A stretch of DNA of 63,139 nt, counting the filler, from Bdellovibrionota bacterium (GTDB lineage: Bacteria; Bdellovibrionota; Bdellovibrionia; Bdellovibrionales; JAEYZS01), in NCBI GenBank assembly GCA_963169515.1. It is 7 parts of 7 records of this genome, joined end to end, with 100 filler letters (N's around TTAATTAATTAA, not from the genome) between each part and the next. Parts side by side here need not be neighbours in the genome. Positions count along the whole stretch, not along the records: positions 46,029 to 48,879 come from CAUJEF010000075.1; 6 more parts are not named here. One strand, given 5' to 3'. Each line of letters opens with the position of its first letter. The first letter of the stretch is position 1. The notes under the pieces were generated by a model. It made no database searches, had not been told where the DNA came from, and was given only the letters and a program-made list of their open reading frames with translations. The position numbers and the translations under genes are program-made. Below, one piece after another: positions 3,179-48,979 of the stretch.

Positions 3179-3739
3179 ATGGGACTTCTAAGTAAAATGT
3201 TTGGCGGAGGAAAAGACAAAGCGGGCGACGGAGTTGCTCTTGATATCATTGAGAACACCCTTAAGGGCCTTTTCGAGATTGGCCAGTTCAATTTGAACTA
3301 TGAAATTTCTGACGATGAAAAGGGAAATATCAATGTCGAGCTTTATGGGGAAGATGAAAAAAACCTGACCGAAAGAGAGGGACAATTGTTGGATGCTTTT
3401 CAGCTTTATCTAAAGCGAGTTCTCCAACATAATTTACCAGAACTTAAAGTGAATTTAAACTGTGATGCAAACGGCTTTCGTGAAGAGGCCAACGACGAAC
3501 TTCTGGAAATTGCGGAAAAGTTAAAAAACATAGCGCTTGATAAAAATCGATCTGTATATGTCCGCGCGCTTCCCCCGAAAGACAGAAAAGTAATTCATCA
3601 ATACCTTGCGGAAGACGGTAGAGTAAAAAGTAAATCTGTTGGCGAAGGGCACTTCAAGAAAATTAAAATTTTCCCAGCCAAAGGCGGGCCCAAGAATCGA
3701 GACGGTCACGGGAATCAGGATAGCGAAGAGCTGAACTAG
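3179..3739 (+). CDS. jag: Jag/KhpB (EloR) KH-R3H RNA-binding protein
   Basis: GQLLDAFQL KH-like segment, RKVIH R3H motif; between yidC and mnmE. Confidence 0.88.
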   Translation: MGLLSKMFGGGKDKAGDGVALDIIENTLKGLFEIGQFNLNYEISDDEKGNINVELYGEDEKNLTEREGQLLDAFQLYLKRVLQHNLPELKVNLNCDANGFREEANDELLEIAEKLKNIALDKNRSVYVRALPPKDRKVIHQYLAEDGRVKSKSVGEGHFKKIKIFPAKGGPKNRDGHGNQDSEELN

Positions 3740-4027: not shown

Positions 4028-4127
4028 NNNNNNNNNNNNNNNNNNNNNNNNNNNNNNNNNNNNNNNNNNNNTTAATTAATTAANNNNNNNNNNNNNNNNN
4101 NNNNNNNNNNNNNNNNNNNNNNNNNNN
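4028..4127. other. Artificial contig linker
   Basis: 100-nt N run with central TTAATTAATTAA (stop codons in all six frames); identical at six places. Confidence 0.98.
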
Positions 4128-4565
4128 TTTTTTGTTTGATGATGGTGCGCCTTGAACTTTTGATCTTAAATAGTGAGCGATATCCCAACGGTCTTCATCT
4201 GAAATATACATGAATTTGCCTCGAACATTTTCTAACATTCCGTTCGTTACAAAATTAAAAGTTCCAACCTCCGTTGCTTTGTTTTTTAAGTCTCCATTTA
4301 AAGCCGCAACCACGTCACTTTCATTGACTAAAAAACTCAAATGAACTTGAAAAAGCTTTTTCCCGCGTTCAATTTTTTCTGGAGTCGAAGTCGCCCAGTC
4401 TTGCCGAACCTTAATAAATGCATCTTTTGTCAGCCCACCAGGGGGATACTTGATGGTATCAATAGGCCCTGGCTGAAAAGCCATTACATACGCGAAAAAA
4501 ACTACTGAAAAGGCCATGCAAAATACAAAAACGATCATACCGCCGCGATTGGCTGCTTCGTTCAT
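4128..4565 (-). CDS. Membrane-anchored cytochrome-c-like protein lacking CxxCH (3' end at contig break)
   Basis: N-terminal TM, then IERGKKLFQ and ISDEDRWDIAHYLRS helices typical of class I cytochrome c. Confidence 0.55.
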
Positions 4566-4683
4566 AGGTGTTTCCTTTGTGTCTGAATATCGATTTATTT
4601 TTAAAAGTAATGGGTGCTGGTGGCTAATGTTTTCTGATATCGTGCGCCGCAAAATAATCGCGTATTATTTCAGCATGTCTCAC

Positions 4684-5466
4684 TCACCTCCACCGAGAAG
4701 AATGTAAAGCCGGAATCTCTGTCAGAAAATCTAGAGTGTAATGATGCTTTCGCAACCAAGTTGCATAGATCTTATAGTCCGGGATGTAGCGCCCAACCAT
4801 TTTCCAGAATTTAACGCCGTGGTTTGGATGCGCCAAATGGGCGAGCTCGTGAACAACAACGTAATCGATAGCTTTCAATGGCGCCCCCATCAACTTCCAA
4901 TTTAAACTGATGGTACCCTGCTCGTTGCAGCTCCCCCACCGGGACGTGTTACCTCGAAAAATAAGCCTTTTGGGGACCAGCCCCATTTCCTTCGATCGAA
5001 TTTTCACAATTTCAGGAAAAACTTTTTTTGCCTCGCGGCTATAGTAGTCACGAATCTTAATCAGGCGTCCATGGCAGTTCAATTTTGGATTACCAATTAA
5101 CAGTTGGGCTCCCCGCACCGCTACAGTTTCTTCGAATGGTTGGATCGCAAGCTTTCGCTTCTCTCCTAAAAAAATAAACTCTTCCCCAGGCAATCCCACT
5201 TGAATTTGTTGCCCTTGGAGCAATCGATCTGATTTTTCAAGCCGGTCGCGAACCCATTGTTCATTTTTCAAAAGAAATTGATCTATATGGCTTTTTTTTT
5301 CTTTGATGGCTGTCGACAGACGAAGGGTTTTATTTTTTTCTATGGTAACTTTAATTCTTCGATATCGAGGAATACGTTCGTGTTTAAATGTCCAGCCTTT
5401 ATAATAATAAACAGACGAAACCTGTGTTTCGGTCTGCTGAAATAAAAATCGAGGGATTTCTAACAT
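4684..5466 (-). CDS. YgjP/DUF45-family (M48-like) metal-dependent hydrolase
   Basis: SRWGSC...ISLNWKL...DYVVVHELAHLAHPNHG..FW. Confidence 0.9.
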   Translation of the reverse strand: MLEIPRFLFQQTETQVSSVYYYKGWTFKHERIPRYRRIKVTIEKNKTLRLSTAIKEKKSHIDQFLLKNEQWVRDRLEKSDRLLQGQQIQVGLPGEEFIFLGEKRKLAIQPFEETVAVRGAQLLIGNPKLNCHGRLIKIRDYYSREAKKVFPEIVKIRSKEMGLVPKRLIFRGNTSRWGSCNEQGTISLNWKLMGAPLKAIDYVVVHELAHLAHPNHGVKFWKMVGRYIPDYKIYATWLRKHHYTLDFLTEIPALHSSRWR

Positions 5467-5580
5467 TTTCCAGATATCATATCAGATATTTTTTCATAGC
5501 CCTTAGATGTTACGCTCTAACACCGTGCTCCGGTGGCCCTTTACCTTGCTAAATTTGGTGGCTACAGACTACAAATATCT

Positions 5581-5674
5581 GGTCAGAGCCCATACAATAG
5601 AGACCTCGCGAATCCCGCCAGGACCGGAAGGTAGCAACGGTAACTTGGAACCTATGTGATATGGGTTTCTGACC
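5581..5674 (+). ncRNA. ffs: Signal recognition particle RNA (small bacterial SRP)
   Basis: Conserved CAGGACCGGAAGGTAGCA core; ends pair (GGTCAGAG/TTCTGACC); immediately upstream of dnaX. Confidence 0.93.
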
Positions 5675-5693: not shown

Positions 5694-7265
5694 ATGTCTT
5701 ATCAGGTGACCGCCCGAAAGTGGCGCCCAAAAACATTTAAAGACTTAATCGGGCAGGATCATATTACCCAAACATTGATCAATGCACTTCGTTCTGATCG
5801 ACTGCCACACGCCCTTCTTTTTTCGGGTACCCGCGGCGTTGGCAAAACCTCGTCCGCCCGCGTTTTGGCTAAAACAATTTTATGTCCAAATGTTCAAGAT
5901 TTTGTTCCATGCAGCCAGTGTTCTGTTTGCGAAGAAATCGCGGCAGGAAACCACGTCGACGTGATCGAGATCGATGGAGCCAGCAATAACGGTGTCGATG
6001 CAATCCGCGAGCTGCGCGAAACTGTGGGCTATATGCCCGCCGGCGGAAAATACAAAGTTTATATCATCGATGAAGTGCATATGCTTACGACCAGCGCATT
6101 CAACGCGCTATTGAAGACCTTGGAAGAGCCCCCTCCACACGTGATTTTCGTTATGGCAACGACAGAGCCGCAAAAAATCCCCGTGACTATTTTGTCCCGT
6201 TGTCAGCGGTTTGATTTCAGAAGGATTTCAACCCGTATTTTAAAGGCGCAAATTGAAAATATCTGCAAAACCGACGGCGTGGAGTTTGAACCTGAAGCTC
6301 TGTGGCTGATTTCACGTTTAGCAGATGGATCAAGCCGTGATGGCTTAAGCATTCTGGATCAGGTAATCAACTTTACTGGCGCACGGTTGACACAAAAAAA
6401 CATTGTTGAAGTTTTGGGACTTACTGACCGAAATTTATTGATACAGTCACTGCGAGCGTTCGTGGATCGCGATTTAGCATCCATTACGGACATCATCGAA
6501 AAAATATTTTCGGCAGGATACGATCCCTCCAATTTTATGAAAGATCTTTTGGAAGAAGTTCGGCATATGCTTCTTGCAAAATTGAATACGTCAAAAACCC
6601 CATTGCTGGATCTTGCCGATAGCGAAATTGAATCATTAAGGAAAACTGCAGAAACCCTGTCGCACGAAGATATTCACTTGCTATTTGATATGGCGCTAAA
6701 GGGATCTGCAGACGTTTTGCGGGCTCAAAGCCCACGCGTCGTTTTGGAAATGGTGCTCTTAAGAATGGCGCAGGCCCCACGCATTCAAGAAATTTCACAA
6801 TTGTTAGGTAGCCGCGACCCCAAAAACACCCAGAACGCGTCATCGCAAAGACAAGCGCCAGCACAACATTCGACCCCTGACACATGGGAATCGTTTGTTG
6901 AAAAGGCAAAAACAGAAAACCCCCTTCTGGCCGCACAATTGGTCAATGTTTCTCTAATTCAGATGACAGAACAAACAGTCACCCTGGGGGTCGCGTCCAA
7001 CCAAAAGTTTATGTACGAGCAATTAAATGTCCCAAAAACTCTGGAAAAGATTTCTCAGTTGCTTAAAAAGATTTGGGGCAAGACAGCGCGTGTTCAAATT
7101 CAACTCTCTGACGACGCCCCCCCATCACCCAACATGATAAAGCAAAAAATCCAGGTGGACAAAAAACGAGATATTGCAGAACGAGTTGAATCACATCCCA
7201 TGGTTCAAAATTTAAAAAATATTTTTAAAACAGAAGTAGCGTCAATTAAGGAGACCAAGCAATGA
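5694..7265 (+). CDS. dnaX: DNA polymerase III subunit gamma/tau
   Basis: MSYQVTARKWRP, GTRGVGKT, DEVHML, SRC motifs. Confidence 0.98.
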   Translation: MSYQVTARKWRPKTFKDLIGQDHITQTLINALRSDRLPHALLFSGTRGVGKTSSARVLAKTILCPNVQDFVPCSQCSVCEEIAAGNHVDVIEIDGASNNGVDAIRELRETVGYMPAGGKYKVYIIDEVHMLTTSAFNALLKTLEEPPPHVIFVMATTEPQKIPVTILSRCQRFDFRRISTRILKAQIENICKTDGVEFEPEALWLISRLADGSSRDGLSILDQVINFTGARLTQKNIVEVLGLTDRNLLIQSLRAFVDRDLASITDIIEKIFSAGYDPSNFMKDLLEEVRHMLLAKLNTSKTPLLDLADSEIESLRKTAETLSHEDIHLLFDMALKGSADVLRAQSPRVVLEMVLLRMAQAPRIQEISQLLGSRDPKNTQNASSQRQAPAQHSTPDTWESFVEKAKTENPLLAAQLVNVSLIQMTEQTVTLGVASNQKFMYEQLNVPKTLEKISQLLKKIWGKTARVQIQLSDDAPPSPNMIKQKIQVDKKRDIAERVESHPMVQNLKNIFKTEVASIKETKQ

Positions 7266-12870: not shown

Positions 12871-12970
12871 NNNNNNNNNNNNNNNNNNNNNNNNNNNNNN
12901 NNNNNNNNNNNNNNTTAATTAATTAANNNNNNNNNNNNNNNNNNNNNNNNNNNNNNNNNNNNNNNNNNNN
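12871..12970. other. Artificial contig linker
   Basis: N run with TTAATTAATTAA. Confidence 0.98.
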
Positions 12971-22985: not shown

Positions 22986-23085
22986 NNNNNNNNNNNNNNN
23001 NNNNNNNNNNNNNNNNNNNNNNNNNNNNNTTAATTAATTAANNNNNNNNNNNNNNNNNNNNNNNNNNNNNNNNNNNNNNNNNNNN
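22986..23085. other. Artificial contig linker
   Basis: N run with TTAATTAATTAA. Confidence 0.98.
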
Positions 23086-28380: not shown

Positions 28381-28480
28381 NNNNNNNNNNNNNNNNNNNN
28401 NNNNNNNNNNNNNNNNNNNNNNNNTTAATTAATTAANNNNNNNNNNNNNNNNNNNNNNNNNNNNNNNNNNNNNNNNNNNN
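28381..28480. other. Artificial contig linker
   Basis: N run with TTAATTAATTAA. Confidence 0.98.
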
Positions 28481-45928: not shown

Positions 45929-46028
45929 NNNNNNNNNNNNNNNNNNNNNNNNNNNNNNNNNNNNNNNNNNNNTTAATTAATTAANNNNNNNNNNNNNNNN
46001 NNNNNNNNNNNNNNNNNNNNNNNNNNNN
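45929..46028. other. Artificial contig linker
   Basis: N run with TTAATTAATTAA. Confidence 0.98.
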
Positions 46029-46398
46029 GTAGTGTTATCGATACAGGTTCAAAATTAAAAAATTGAAAATCCCTAAGCGATTTAAATAGGTAACGACACT
46101 TTTTCTCAGCAGCAATCGAGCAACTCACTTTCGGAATTTACATTTCTTCGGCGCATTCGTGGGCACCGATTTTTTAGAAATGTAAAGCGAATTTAAGAAC
46201 GCTAAATTTGTGCATGATTTTTTAATCAAGTGAATTCCGCTACTCATCAAATCTATTCCTCTTTGATTTTTAAACGAAAAAATACACTGAGATTGATTTT
46301 ATCAAATCCAAAAAATAAAAAATATAATGGCGGCGAATACTCTTTACCCATGTTCAGGAATTCTAGTAAATCAAAACAAGTGGACTGTGAAATAATAG

Positions 46399-46791
46399 CA
46401 TCGGGTCACTCGCCCGAAAGAGAGACGAGGCCCGCCGGGGTCAGCAATCTCAAGGATGATTGGTTGTCGCATGAGAATTGTTACGGCCACTCCAGTTTAA
46501 ACACGAAGGCCAGAAGACTGGAGCAGAACGCCACGAATTTATAGTGTGAGGCTATATACCATAAACCTGTGCAAAAGTGGTAAGTCCCTATATGGGCAGA
46601 AGTAGCGCAGCGGCGGCACAAAATTTTAGAAAACAGCAGTCAGTGCTATGATCATATAAGCGTTGGCTTCTGTTTCTGCTTAATGATAGGTTTGTCGACC
46701 ATTCAGAAATTTGGTCGGCCGGATTTTCATTGCAGAATAGTCAGAGTTTCTCCGCCAAACAAGTGGTTCTGGAGACTTTAGATAATTGATG
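46399..46791 (+). ncRNA. Candidate large structured non-coding RNA (~390 nt), family not recognised
   Basis: About nine hand-identified helices with many G-U pairs on the + strand, 5'/3' closure (CATCGG/TTGATG), nested multiloop and possible pseudoknot; GC-richer than the AT-rich upstream flank. Confidence 0.65.
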
Positions 46792-46796
46792 ATTTT

Positions 46797-47606
46797 TTAA
46801 AGTAAGAGTTCATAAAGAGCAGATTTAATAAACTCACTTGCTGATGCCACGTCAGCAAACTGAAAGGGTACACCGATTTCACCGTTCTGCCGTCCATTGG
46901 CTAAAGGGCTATACGGGCCCGACACTATCCCAAGCACCTGCAATTTTTGATTAACGATCACAAGTGCGGGTGAACCAGAGTCACCACTGCAAATGCCGAC
47001 TTGATCCGATCCCAGAATAAGGGGAGCGCCCCAGCGCCCTGGTTCATTTAAAACATCAATCACTGTTAATTTTGCGATATTGAGTTGTGAAGAATCACCA
47101 CCATAACATTTATTGTCCAGTATCTGATATCGGCCGTAACCGCCGAATATAACCTCAGTGCCAATTAACTTTGCGCTACTTCCAGAATAAAGTGGAATTG
47201 GAGGCGTAAATGAGATGGGCTCCTCCAGCAAAAGCAAAGAAAGATCCTGACCTGAATGGTCTAAATAGCGGGTTTCGAAAATCCCTTTTGAAACTGATTT
47301 TATCTTTACCACTCTCGAAACTTTGTCAGATTGGCTGCTATTGGGAAAAGAAATGTTTATTAAAGAGGGATCTTTTGAGCCAAATTCCGTACAATGACCT
47401 GCGCTCAAGACAATTTTTGAATGGATAAGTACACCACCACAGTCGATACTTAATTTTGCAATAGATGAGAGGCCGTCATTCAGAACTGATATTCTAACGG
47501 CATCGTTATGGCCAATTACCGCCAGCGGAGAGTTTAAAAAACAAAAGCTACTTGCAGCAAACAGGGCGAGCCTAAAAGTGCTTTTCGCTGTCAAAAGTTT
47601 ATACAC
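46797..47606 (-). CDS. Secreted trypsin-like (S1) serine protease
   Basis: CGGVLI, LSAGHC, DLSLLLL, CSGDSGSP catalytic triad; signal peptide. Confidence 0.92.
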   Translation of the reverse strand: MYKLLTAKSTFRLALFAASSFCFLNSPLAVIGHNDAVRISVLNDGLSSIAKLSIDCGGVLIHSKIVLSAGHCTEFGSKDPSLINISFPNSSQSDKVSRVVKIKSVSKGIFETRYLDHSGQDLSLLLLEEPISFTPPIPLYSGSSAKLIGTEVIFGGYGRYQILDNKCYGGDSSQLNIAKLTVIDVLNEPGRWGAPLILGSDQVGICSGDSGSPALVIVNQKLQVLGIVSGPYSPLANGRQNGEIGVPFQFADVASASEFIKSALYELLL

Positions 47607-47805: not shown

Positions 47806-48471
47806 TCACGATGGTTCAGGTTTTGAGTTACATAAATCGGCTGGTTTATCAATGGCTGGAAAAACGACGGTTTTATCTTCGCTAACTACTTCAGGTACAA
47901 TTTGAGCCTCTTTTTGTCGCTGAAGTTCAATTTCCTTTTTTATTGCAACTACCTCGGCGTGAACACTTCCATGACTGCAACGACTAATCGTTGCAATTTG
48001 TCGATAAGTCATTCCCGCTTTAAGGAGCTTTCGAATTAAATCTGAATCCCGAAGCTTTTTTCGGCCAATAAGTTTTCCCTTGGCGCGAGCATTAGCAAGC
48101 CCTATTTTCACACGGTCGGCAATCAAATCACGTTCTAATTGCGATATAGAGGCAAGAATCGAAAAAATGGCCACGCCGACTGCAGAGTTAGTATCAATTT
48201 TTTCGGTAAGACTAACAAAATGCACATTCTTTTTCTTAAAAACTTGTAAAGCTGTGAGTAGATGCGTTGTGCTCCTCGCAAAGCGAGAGAATGAATAGAC
48301 AACAACTGAAGAAATCTCATCGTTATCAACAGCAGTCATCATTCTATCGAGGGCAGGACGGCTAGACTTAGTCCCACTGATGCCTTCATCAGTGAAAAAT
48401 TCTACATTCGTTATATTGTTTTGCTCGCAATACTGTTTTAGTACACGAACTTGAGATTCAAGACCGGTCGC
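47806..48471 (-). pseudogene. Serine recombinase (resolvase/invertase family), 5'-truncated
   Basis: Frame reads ATGLESQVRVLKQYC...FTDEGISGTKSSRPALDRM...SRFARS...ERDLIADRVKIGLANARAKG..GR; TGA directly upstream, so the YxRVS catalytic motif is missing. Confidence 0.8.
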
Positions 48472-48852
48472 TCACTACTCTTGAGAAATAGGCACAATCT
48501 AAAATATTTTGAAAAAACAGCTCTGGATCAATGGCTCGGTCTGTATCCCAAAATGAAAGAGATCTATTGTTACAAAGAGGCGCTCTACAAACTCTATCGT
48601 ACGAAGGGTTTTAATAAATCCTCAAAAGCGCTCATTAACCTAACGGATCGAATGGCTTTATCGGTGTTACCAGAAATAAAAAAACTCAGAAAAACCCTCA
48701 TGAGGTGGCGTAATGAAATATTAAATTATTTTAAATCCGGATTGACGAATGCAAAAACTGAAGGATACAACCGGCTTGCAAAGGGTGAGCAATACTCATC
48801 TTTTGGAGTTCGAAGTTTTACTAACTATAGACTTCGTTTGCTAAATATTTAA
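48468..48852 (+). mobile_element. ISL3-family transposase, C-terminal fragment
   Basis: KTLMRWRNEILNYF...TNAKTEGYNRLAK...FGVRSFTNYRLRLL, typical ISL3 C-terminus; N-terminal part absent. Confidence 0.88.
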
Positions 48853-48879: not shown

Positions 48880-48979
48880 NNNNNNNNNNNNNNNNNNNNN
48901 NNNNNNNNNNNNNNNNNNNNNNNTTAATTAATTAANNNNNNNNNNNNNNNNNNNNNNNNNNNNNNNNNNNNNNNNNNNN
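48880..48979. other. Artificial contig linker
   Basis: N run with TTAATTAATTAA. Confidence 0.98.

Follow-up and report, generated by a model that had tools for sequence, protein, structure and literature searches.

The DNA analyzed here, referred to as the window, is a stretch of 63,139 nucleotides (nt) from a Bdellovibrionota bacterium (assembly GCA_963169515.1) in which separate contigs are joined by N runs around TTAATTAATTAA; genes on opposite sides of a join are not true neighbors. Its 2.85-kb contig at positions 46029 through 48879 (contig 75 of 173 in the 2.38-Mb genome) carries an intact copy of a previously unclassified element, which belongs to a new family of structured RNA that occurs across Bdellovibrionota, a phylum of predatory bacteria. 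The covariance-model match runs from 46373 through 46614 on the + strand (positions 345 through 586 of contig 75), covers the full length of the model and scores 216.8 bits; the source genome holds this single copy. A sequence-only reading of the window had placed a structured element of ~390 nt at 46399 through 46791. A real, conserved element does lie there on the + strand, but its extent is different, the core being 46373 through 46614. The conserved core, of ~235 nt, has the following parts:

46373-46614, + strand, structured RNA core with eight covarying helices
46380-83 with 46531-34, helix 1
46385-87 with 46524-26, helix 2
46401-05 with 46413-17, helix 3
46434-37 with 46484-87, helix 4
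46490-95 with 46518-23, helix 5
46540-44 with 46552-56, helix 6
46567-72 with 46605-10, helix 7
46584-88 with 46594-97, helix 8
46428-46432, + strand, variable 5-nt junction segment (herein the tag), here AGGCC, between the invariant GAGAGACG and helix 46434-37

The structure was derived using RNAalifold and inspection from an alignment of 36 non-identical homologs, to which the pairing values below refer unless another set is named. The long-range helices 1 and 2 close a junction that encloses helices 3 through 5, there are three further stem-loops, and long unpaired stretches of the core are invariant in the alignment; the domain inside the fourth helix is a variant common to the window copy and a few other copies. 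Over the eight helices (37 pairs), 97.0% of cells are paired and 26 of the 37 pairs have changed on both sides. None of 500 column shuffles reached any of five measures, and pairing fell to 31 to 42% when partners were slid by 1 to 3 columns. The fold recurs in 75 distinct metagenome sequences (96.0% paired; 30/37 pairs double-changed) and in 17 sequences from families outside the order Bdellovibrionales (89.9% paired; 29/37 pairs double-changed), with slid controls at 30 to 41%, both alignments having been fitted to the covariance model R1 and thus leaning towards it. Family-wide, there are 56 G-U or U-G cells and 12 A-C or C-A cells; this excess points to the + strand as the folded one and upholds the argument that had been made for that strand from the G-U mismatches of the window copy.

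Two of the helices first proposed from the single sequence agree with this structure. CTCCAG/CTGGAG (46490-95/46518-23) has four of its six pairs changed on both sides, and GTCC/GGGC (46584-88/46594-97) is likewise supported by the homologs. A hairpin near 46540 is present as 46540-44/46552-56, but the register originally given for it is 49.5% paired. Other proposals are not supported by the alignment: CTCG/CGAG is 67% paired; GC-CGCCG/CGGCGGC is 62 to 67% paired and clashes with the covarying helix 46434-37/46484-87; and GCCAC/GTGGT is 79% paired with no double changes, GCCAC pairing instead with 46380-83. The outer GGTC/GGCC part of a long hairpin is well paired (93.6%) but has no double changes and represents a rival register of the covarying helix. 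Taken jointly, the alternative core helices reach 65.8% pairing, compared with 97.0% in the structure derived from covariation. A separately considered pairing, of the GGCGGC repeat (described below) with the 5′ strand of helix 46434-37, is not supported in the homolog alignment. The proposed closing helix (46399-404/46786-91) and last helix (46743-79) reach beyond the end of the unit at 46766. The window does contain the hairpins at 46631-75 and 46676-735, but these cannot be aligned across copies; window-specific hairpins and the unit end make up 46620 through 46791, the 3′-terminal third of the originally proposed interval. The energy of single-sequence folding was modestly better than chance for 46399 through 46791 (z = -2.75 on the + strand, with 3/100 shuffles as good; z = -1.24 on the - strand) but unremarkable for the core alone (z = -1.12 on the + strand, +0.53 on the - strand).

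The element is non-coding. Column entropy by phase (0.56, 0.53, 0.61) has no three-base periodicity, a + frame is open across the core in 0/36 sequences and a - frame in 5/36, and indels of 1, 2, 5 and 11 nt are frequent. A protein-coding gene was rejected on the grounds that no frame is kept and no periodicity is present, and a type I toxin-antitoxin or small-protein mRNA was rejected because a scan of 45 copies found no small open reading frame (ORF) with a ribosome-binding site at any recurring position. It follows from the entropy, the frames, the indels and the small-ORF scan that ORF 46230-46544, which overlaps the core, is not conserved. Together, the 26 of 37 compensatory pairs, the two further sequence sets, the G-U excess and the lack of a coding signal point to a large non-coding RNA of the + strand, as the sequence-only reading had proposed.

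Known RNAs do not account for the element. When the whole window was searched with Rfam 15 at gathering scores, the sole match was signal recognition particle (SRP) RNA at 5581 through 5677. Relaxing the threshold to E up to 10 over 46029 through 47000 gave nine weak matches to unrelated families, the best scoring 23.1 bits against a gathering score of 55, and the Rfam models of HEARO, GOLLD, ROOL, OLE and raiA had no match to the element. ARAGORN found no transfer RNA (tRNA) or transfer-messenger RNA (tmRNA) in the window. With Rfam 15 and ARAGORN both negative at the element, its proposed distinctness from tRNA, tmRNA, RNase P RNA and SRP RNA stands. The same holds for the proposal of a new family, given the lack of an Rfam 15 match at E up to 10 and a full-text literature search on structured or non-coding RNA and miniature inverted-repeat elements in Bdellovibrio that returned nothing relevant, as judged from listings and the openings of abstracts. 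The SRP RNA, of the bacterial small type, lies on the + strand at full length (60.7 bits against a gathering score of 40); the RNase P RNA and the tmRNA of the source genome are elsewhere, on contigs 39 and 170, respectively.

R1 matched 44 of 151 genomes of the order, representing 31 of 69 genera and 11 of 13 families (including that of the window), and two of these genomes have at least 14 matches each. In a sample of the phylum, 28 of 151 genomes matched, and 18 of these fall outside the order; the genome surveys are samples, and absence elsewhere is not implied. BLAST searches of 61 related genomes found matches in 18, in at most four places per genome and often at contig ends. A pattern scan using one genome per species returned 37 stretches, of which 31 stood under Bdellovibrio-type record titles; a stretch from Planctomycetota has a weak local profile match (E = 7.6e-4), and three others (Desulfovibrio, Acidobacteriales and Steroidobacteraceae) have no profile match. 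The two remaining stretches (L050 and L071) are near-identical and sit in bins labeled Chlamydiae and Rickettsiales, reflecting either mis-binned Bdellovibrio-type contigs or transfer. The pattern scan of metagenomes yielded 88 contigs, with 81 R1 matches in 80 metagenome loci, while a strict pattern scan of viral contigs gave 0 matches and no phage record matched either. Two plasmids of Bdellovibrio sp. HAGR004 carry the element. In the samples searched, the family is confined to one phylum. Two copies are visibly damaged: that of L075 is split by ~2.1 kb of inserted DNA after model position 128 (4934-5062 and 2704-2813, - strand), and that of L069 (4907-5063) is without the middle of the core (profile positions 66-143).

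Homology between the window and other genomes extends beyond the core, spanning about 46313 through 46628, and ends again after a short motif at 46757-66. The flanks hold the following features:

46214-46225 and 46789-46800, left and right copies of a perfect 12-nt direct repeat (ATGATTTTTTAA)
46299-46328, + strand, sigma-70-like promoter match (TTATCA, 18-nt spacer, TATAAT; 10/12), with a predicted start near 46335
46329-46337, + strand, upstream copy of a bracketing direct repeat (GGCGGCGAA) that brackets the leader hairpin and the core
46343-46370, + strand, leader hairpin TTTAC ... GTAAA, directly 5′ of the core
46612-46619, + strand, downstream counterpart (GGCGGCAC) of the bracketing repeat, immediately behind the last helix of the core
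46631-46675, + strand, window-specific hairpin with 17-nt arms (76% complementary)
46676-46735, + strand, second hairpin, from sequence and alignment
46748-46766, + strand, end of the conserved unit on its right side, made of an inverted GGCGGC repeat copy at 46748-57 and then AAACAAGTGG at 46757-66

The window copy belongs to a subtype in which the bracketing repeat is GGCGGC and the end motif is GGCGGC...AAA. Its sole terminal-repeat-like pair in the window is a 10-nt inverted pair (46328-37 with 46748-57; 90% matching), and AAACAAGTGG is present twice, at 46374-83 and 46757-66. Likeness among related copies stops directly after the 46757-66 motif; in homolog L087, contigs from two sequencing runs diverge at the equivalent boundary (position 1381). 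By inspection of alignments, the arms of the leader hairpin change in step between copies, and by comparison they are similar to the repeats at the unit ends in other subfamilies. At the place of 46676-46735, copies of the same subtype have, again by inspection, a hairpin of differing sequence, and the hairpin at 46631-46675 may lie close to the RNA's 3′ end. The 12-nt direct repeat may be a duplication flanking the whole insert in the source genome or may be due to chance; flanking repeats of this kind are not enriched family-wide (20/121 copies vs. 15 in the control).

The clearest view of the surrounding unit comes from one complete genome with five copies, which are 97 to 99% alike and share exact ends, defining a 464-bp unit with 15-nt terminal inverted repeats; TA stands on both sides of all four intact copies (4/4), and other subfamilies have no clear target-site duplication. 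A second genome likewise has several near-identical copies, in a unit of its own that measures about 413 bp and ends in 12-nt repeats. Across the family, an inverted copy of the right-end 13-mer was found upstream in 26 of 58 copies compared with 3/58 for the reversed control, and the units so bounded have a median length of 410 bp (range 367 to 615). In most subfamilies the terminal inverted repeats measure 13 to 16 nt and the units ~0.4 kb, and no protein is encoded. Bracketing direct repeats of at least 10 nt are present in 30 of 140 copies (control, 3), with 50 distinct sequences, and by eye the bracketing repeat is an extra inner copy of the right end of the unit. In the five-copy genome, repeats pair only at spacings of 417 to 470 bp, and the one larger arrangement of repeats has an AAA_14/DUF4143 ATPase inside, not a transposase; a repeat search in a second genome was too noisy, with controls at 15 and 19. 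In a complete genome (L201, 533-2393), an AAA_14/DUF4143 ATPase gene stands between a solitary terminal repeat and a complete RNA unit, which looks like a unit carrying a passenger gene, with a spare end on one side and an entire copy on the other. Elsewhere, pairs of copies enclose single genes, as if units could carry passengers: direct copies at 3364-3574 and 6126-6336 (+) flank a catalase-peroxidase gene in L215, and inverted copies at 4029-4240 (+) and 5272-5498 (-) flank a methyltransferase gene in L219.

In other subfamilies than that of the window, the variable junction segment of the core has a sequence counterpart in these terminal repeats. The tag, the five nt after the invariant GAGAGNCG in the junction before the fourth helix, varies between subfamilies. 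Among 75 copies with a GT-purine-rich motif 8 to 90 nt downstream of the core, it is identical (5/5) in 45 to the five nt ending at the G of the motif, which form the inner part of the right repeat. Relatives by descent share both sites, so the number of pentamer types is a fairer measure than copy counts; there are 12 distinct matching pentamers among 39 distinct pairs, whereas permutation gave 0.68 identities on average and at most 5 in 10,000 trials. Of 86 copies outside the subtype of the window, 57 have the pentamer again no more than 100 nt downstream (control, 5.4), and 44 have its reverse complement no more than 180 nt upstream (control, 11.4).

The neighborhoods of the RNA are variable. 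Clustering of 611 ORFs from 44 loci gave one cluster present in more than three loci, and this consists of antisense ORFs inside the RNA itself; such ORFs, of 70 to 100 amino acids, overlap the core in 13 of the 44 loci. Pfam searches of 137 ORFs from 33 loci and of 43 ORFs from 14 loci outside the order found unrelated genes and no conserved neighbor protein. An integrase, a resolvase, an insertion sequence (IS) protein or a TraG-like protein lies within 2.5 kb in 8 of 33 loci; toxin-antitoxin, Fic, HipA, Rhs and AAA_14/DUF4143 genes are recurring neighbors. Chromosomal copies occur in both orientations beside ordinary genes. The suggestion that the RNA is mobile cargo is thus sustained by its patchy, multiple copies, by units bounded by inverted repeats and by variable neighborhoods rich in recombinases and IS fragments. 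Single loci add detail. A copy in L049 stands directly downstream of a tRNA-Glu gene (4538-4613), with a 12-nt repeat of the tRNA 3′ end beyond the RNA, at about 5434; the pattern is typical of integrase-mediated insertion, though the flanked stretch is only ~0.8 kb. On plasmid AP029178.1 (L038, from ~6320 onwards), an IS66-family element with a TnpB-like accessory protein and a transposase lies directly downstream of the RNA and is probably a separate insertion. The complete genome G085, with at least 14 RNA copies, has 10 reverse-transcriptase matches in near-identical, group II intron-like sets, some of them a few kb from the RNA.

The joins of the window and the genes on the contig of the RNA are as follows:

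4028-4127, 12871-12970, 22986-23085, 28381-28480, 45929-46028 and 48880-48979, joins between contigs
46797-47606, - strand, trypsin-like ORF on the same 2.85-kb contig as the RNA
47806-48342, - strand, truncated resolvase without the first ~54 profile positions, same contig
48451-48852, + strand, C-terminal fragment of an ISL3 transposase, same contig

A resolvase and an ISL3 fragment accompany the RNA in a second genome too (L059). The PilR-like activator and the pilin-like ORF before 45929 bear no relation to the contig of the RNA.

The fold with its conservation and strand, the mobile units and the numbers of copies are observed, as is the absence of a conserved neighbor gene. On this basis we read 46373 through 46614 as a copy of a new-family RNA that is the payload of protein-less mobile units and whose tag, in most subfamilies, would pair with the ends of the element, and we give this reading an even chance. 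The RNA would be transcribed from within the unit and would fold into a scaffold that exposes the tag, short, variable and single-stranded, in the junction ahead of helix 46434-37. In most subfamilies the tag equals the inner five nt of the right repeat, so it is complementary to the top strand of the left repeat and to the bottom strand of the right repeat, and its most likely mode of action would be pairing of the RNA with the element's own ends, in the form of DNA or of read-through RNA. Such pairing would serve the mobility of the element or the control of that mobility, with a factor encoded elsewhere. The window copy is probably carried passively or dependent on factors supplied in trans. 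A more far-reaching version, which we regard as rather unlikely, would have a guide-like RNA on protein-less units, with a programmable 5-nt tag that recognizes the terminal repeats and directs or catalyzes a step of transposition or the protection of ends; the RNA would act with an unrecognized host or trans-encoded enzyme, or as a ribozyme.

Several results weigh against tag pairing on mobile units as the role of this RNA. The tag is only 5 nt long, and descent inflates the copy counts. In the subtype of the window, the counts are no higher than in controls: the tag recurs downstream in 1 of 27 copies (control, 3.0), and its reverse complement is present upstream in 2 of 27; this subtype keeps the whole core without a tag match, so the function of the RNA cannot rest on the match everywhere. 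No left repeat was found in 32 of the 58 copies searched with the right-end 13-mer. Transcription signals are not enriched: sigma-70 matches lie upstream of 19 of 134 copies, compared with 22 on the opposite strand and 17 downstream, and intrinsic-terminator-like sites lie downstream of 7 of 137 copies, compared with 8 and 7 in controls. A search for sequencing runs containing the L087 homolog, which comes from a complete genome, listed no RNA run; four wastewater runs labeled RNA-seq are probably DNA, and their contigs served only in placing the 3′ boundary of the unit. To these are added the lean of the two further alignments towards R1 and the unremarkable single-sequence folding of the core, which leaves the case from energy alone weak. 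The search for a partner was also negative. Among five genomes that carry the RNA, of which two have at least 14 copies, the TnpB zinc ribbon occurs in 0/5, and no TnpB, IscB or IsrB gene adjoins the RNA; the IS630-type DDE domain occurs in 0/5; the IS110 DEDD domain occurs in 2/5, with none adjoining the RNA; and the Y1 transposase occurs in 4/5 but is missing from one of the genomes with at least 14 copies. The reverse-transcriptase domain RVT_1 is not associated with the RNA (16/44 RNA-positive vs. 35/107 RNA-negative genomes) and is absent from the source genome and from one genome with at least 14 copies. An autonomous element with the same repeats was not found in the complete genome with five fresh copies.

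Part of this evidence suits another explanation, which we consider possible but less probable than tag pairing: the RNA may be a hitch-hiking regulator with trans activity on the host or other mobile elements (for instance as a protein sponge or in defense or counter-defense), with the units merely spreading it and the identity of tag and repeat being a by-product of the origin of the units, in which the right end has additional inner copies. Subtypes with no tag match and no clear terminal repeats, that of the window among them, retain the full core, and this keeps the hitch-hiking regulator a strong rival. The variable, island-like neighborhoods with toxin-antitoxin genes, Fic, HipA, integrases and Rhs fit it as well, as does the resemblance of the bracketing repeat to an inner right-end copy, by which end sequences recur inside the unit anyway. 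What it leaves unexplained is the tracking of the terminal repeat by 12 different junction pentamers. Action as single-stranded DNA, with the + strand folding into a recognition or priming site while the element is transferred, replicated or transposed, would suit the ties of the element to mobile DNA and plasmids and the lack of promoter or terminator enrichment, and neither covariation nor G-T tolerance can separate DNA from RNA; we nevertheless judge it improbable, given the eight helices, the multi-helix junction and the long invariant unpaired stretches, together with chromosomal copies in both orientations beside ordinary genes. Folded RNAs typically have such features, whereas single-stranded DNA sites use simple hairpins.

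A large structured RNA in mobile DNA with a short variable segment matching element ends also recalls known classes, and a divergent member of one of these (a TnpB, IscB or IsrB guide, an IS110 bridge RNA, an ORF-less group II intron, or the RNA of a retron or defense reverse transcriptase) might have been missed by existing models. This has slightly less in its favor than the single-stranded DNA site: there is no Rfam match at E up to 10, partner proteins are adjacent in none of the 33 + 14 loci, and the domain counts given above (TnpB in 0/5 and IS110 in 2/5 genomes, with reverse transcriptase unassociated) argue against it. That the element is non-functional, a product of chance pairing, a decayed repeat or a coding remnant (ORF 46230-46544 or the antisense ORFs), is very improbable. 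The unremarkable z-score of the core and the antisense ORFs over the core in 13/44 loci would agree with such an origin, but compensatory changes are present in three sets of sequences, and the core has no three-base periodicity, an open frame in only 5/36 sequences with none on the + strand, and frequent indels.

Large, intricate bacterial RNAs are rare, and several earlier orphans proved to be ribozymes or guides of programmable DNA-cutting or DNA-joining enzymes. The link between tag and element ends supplies a concrete, experimentally testable hypothesis. Should the link be functional, mobile DNA would have a new way of using RNA, possibly a new programmable system; otherwise, the family still offers a covariance model ready for use in the annotation of Bdellovibrionota genomes and plasmids. 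The comparisons below combine general background on the systems concerned with the Rfam and Pfam tests. With the orphan RNAs GOLLD, ROOL, OLE and raiA, the new RNA shares a large, complex, well-conserved fold, and some of those RNAs are likewise linked to mobile DNA; it differs in having no Rfam match and no match on viral contigs (strict pattern) and in being limited to one phylum in the samples. HEARO RNA and the other guide RNAs of IS200/IS605-type nucleases (IsrB, IscB and TnpB) are similar in being large structured non-coding RNAs of multi-copy mobile DNA, first noticed as an orphan motif, that combine a scaffold with a short variable segment. Those RNAs adjoin or overlap their nuclease gene, whereas the new RNA has no conserved neighbor protein, no TnpB domain in the five carriers (0/5) and no match to any Rfam model, that of HEARO included. 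Its units also have terminal inverted repeats, which IS200/IS605 elements are not known to have.

The bridge RNA of IS110 elements resembles the new RNA in being encoded in the non-coding part of a mobile element, and its short programmable stretches that match the ends of that element have a possible parallel in the tag. The new RNA is larger, no IS110 recombinase adjoins it and the DEDD domain occurs in 2/5 carriers; it has one 5-nt matching stretch only, in 45/75 copies and not in the subtype of the window, and no stretch matching a target site was seen, none having been searched for. In their outward form, the units of other subfamilies resemble miniature inverted-repeat transposable elements (MITEs): they measure 0.37 to 0.6 kb, have terminal inverted repeats of 13 to 16 nt and no transposase, occur in two genomes as near-identical scattered copies and, in one genome, have TA flanking all four intact copies. 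They depart from MITEs in that no autonomous partner was found and that their interior is an eight-helix RNA under purifying selection; ordinary MITEs are not known to have an interior conserved across a phylum. If the guide-like version were true, the units would be the first MITE-type element with RNA-dependent mobility and would represent a new class of RNA-guided DNA recognition.

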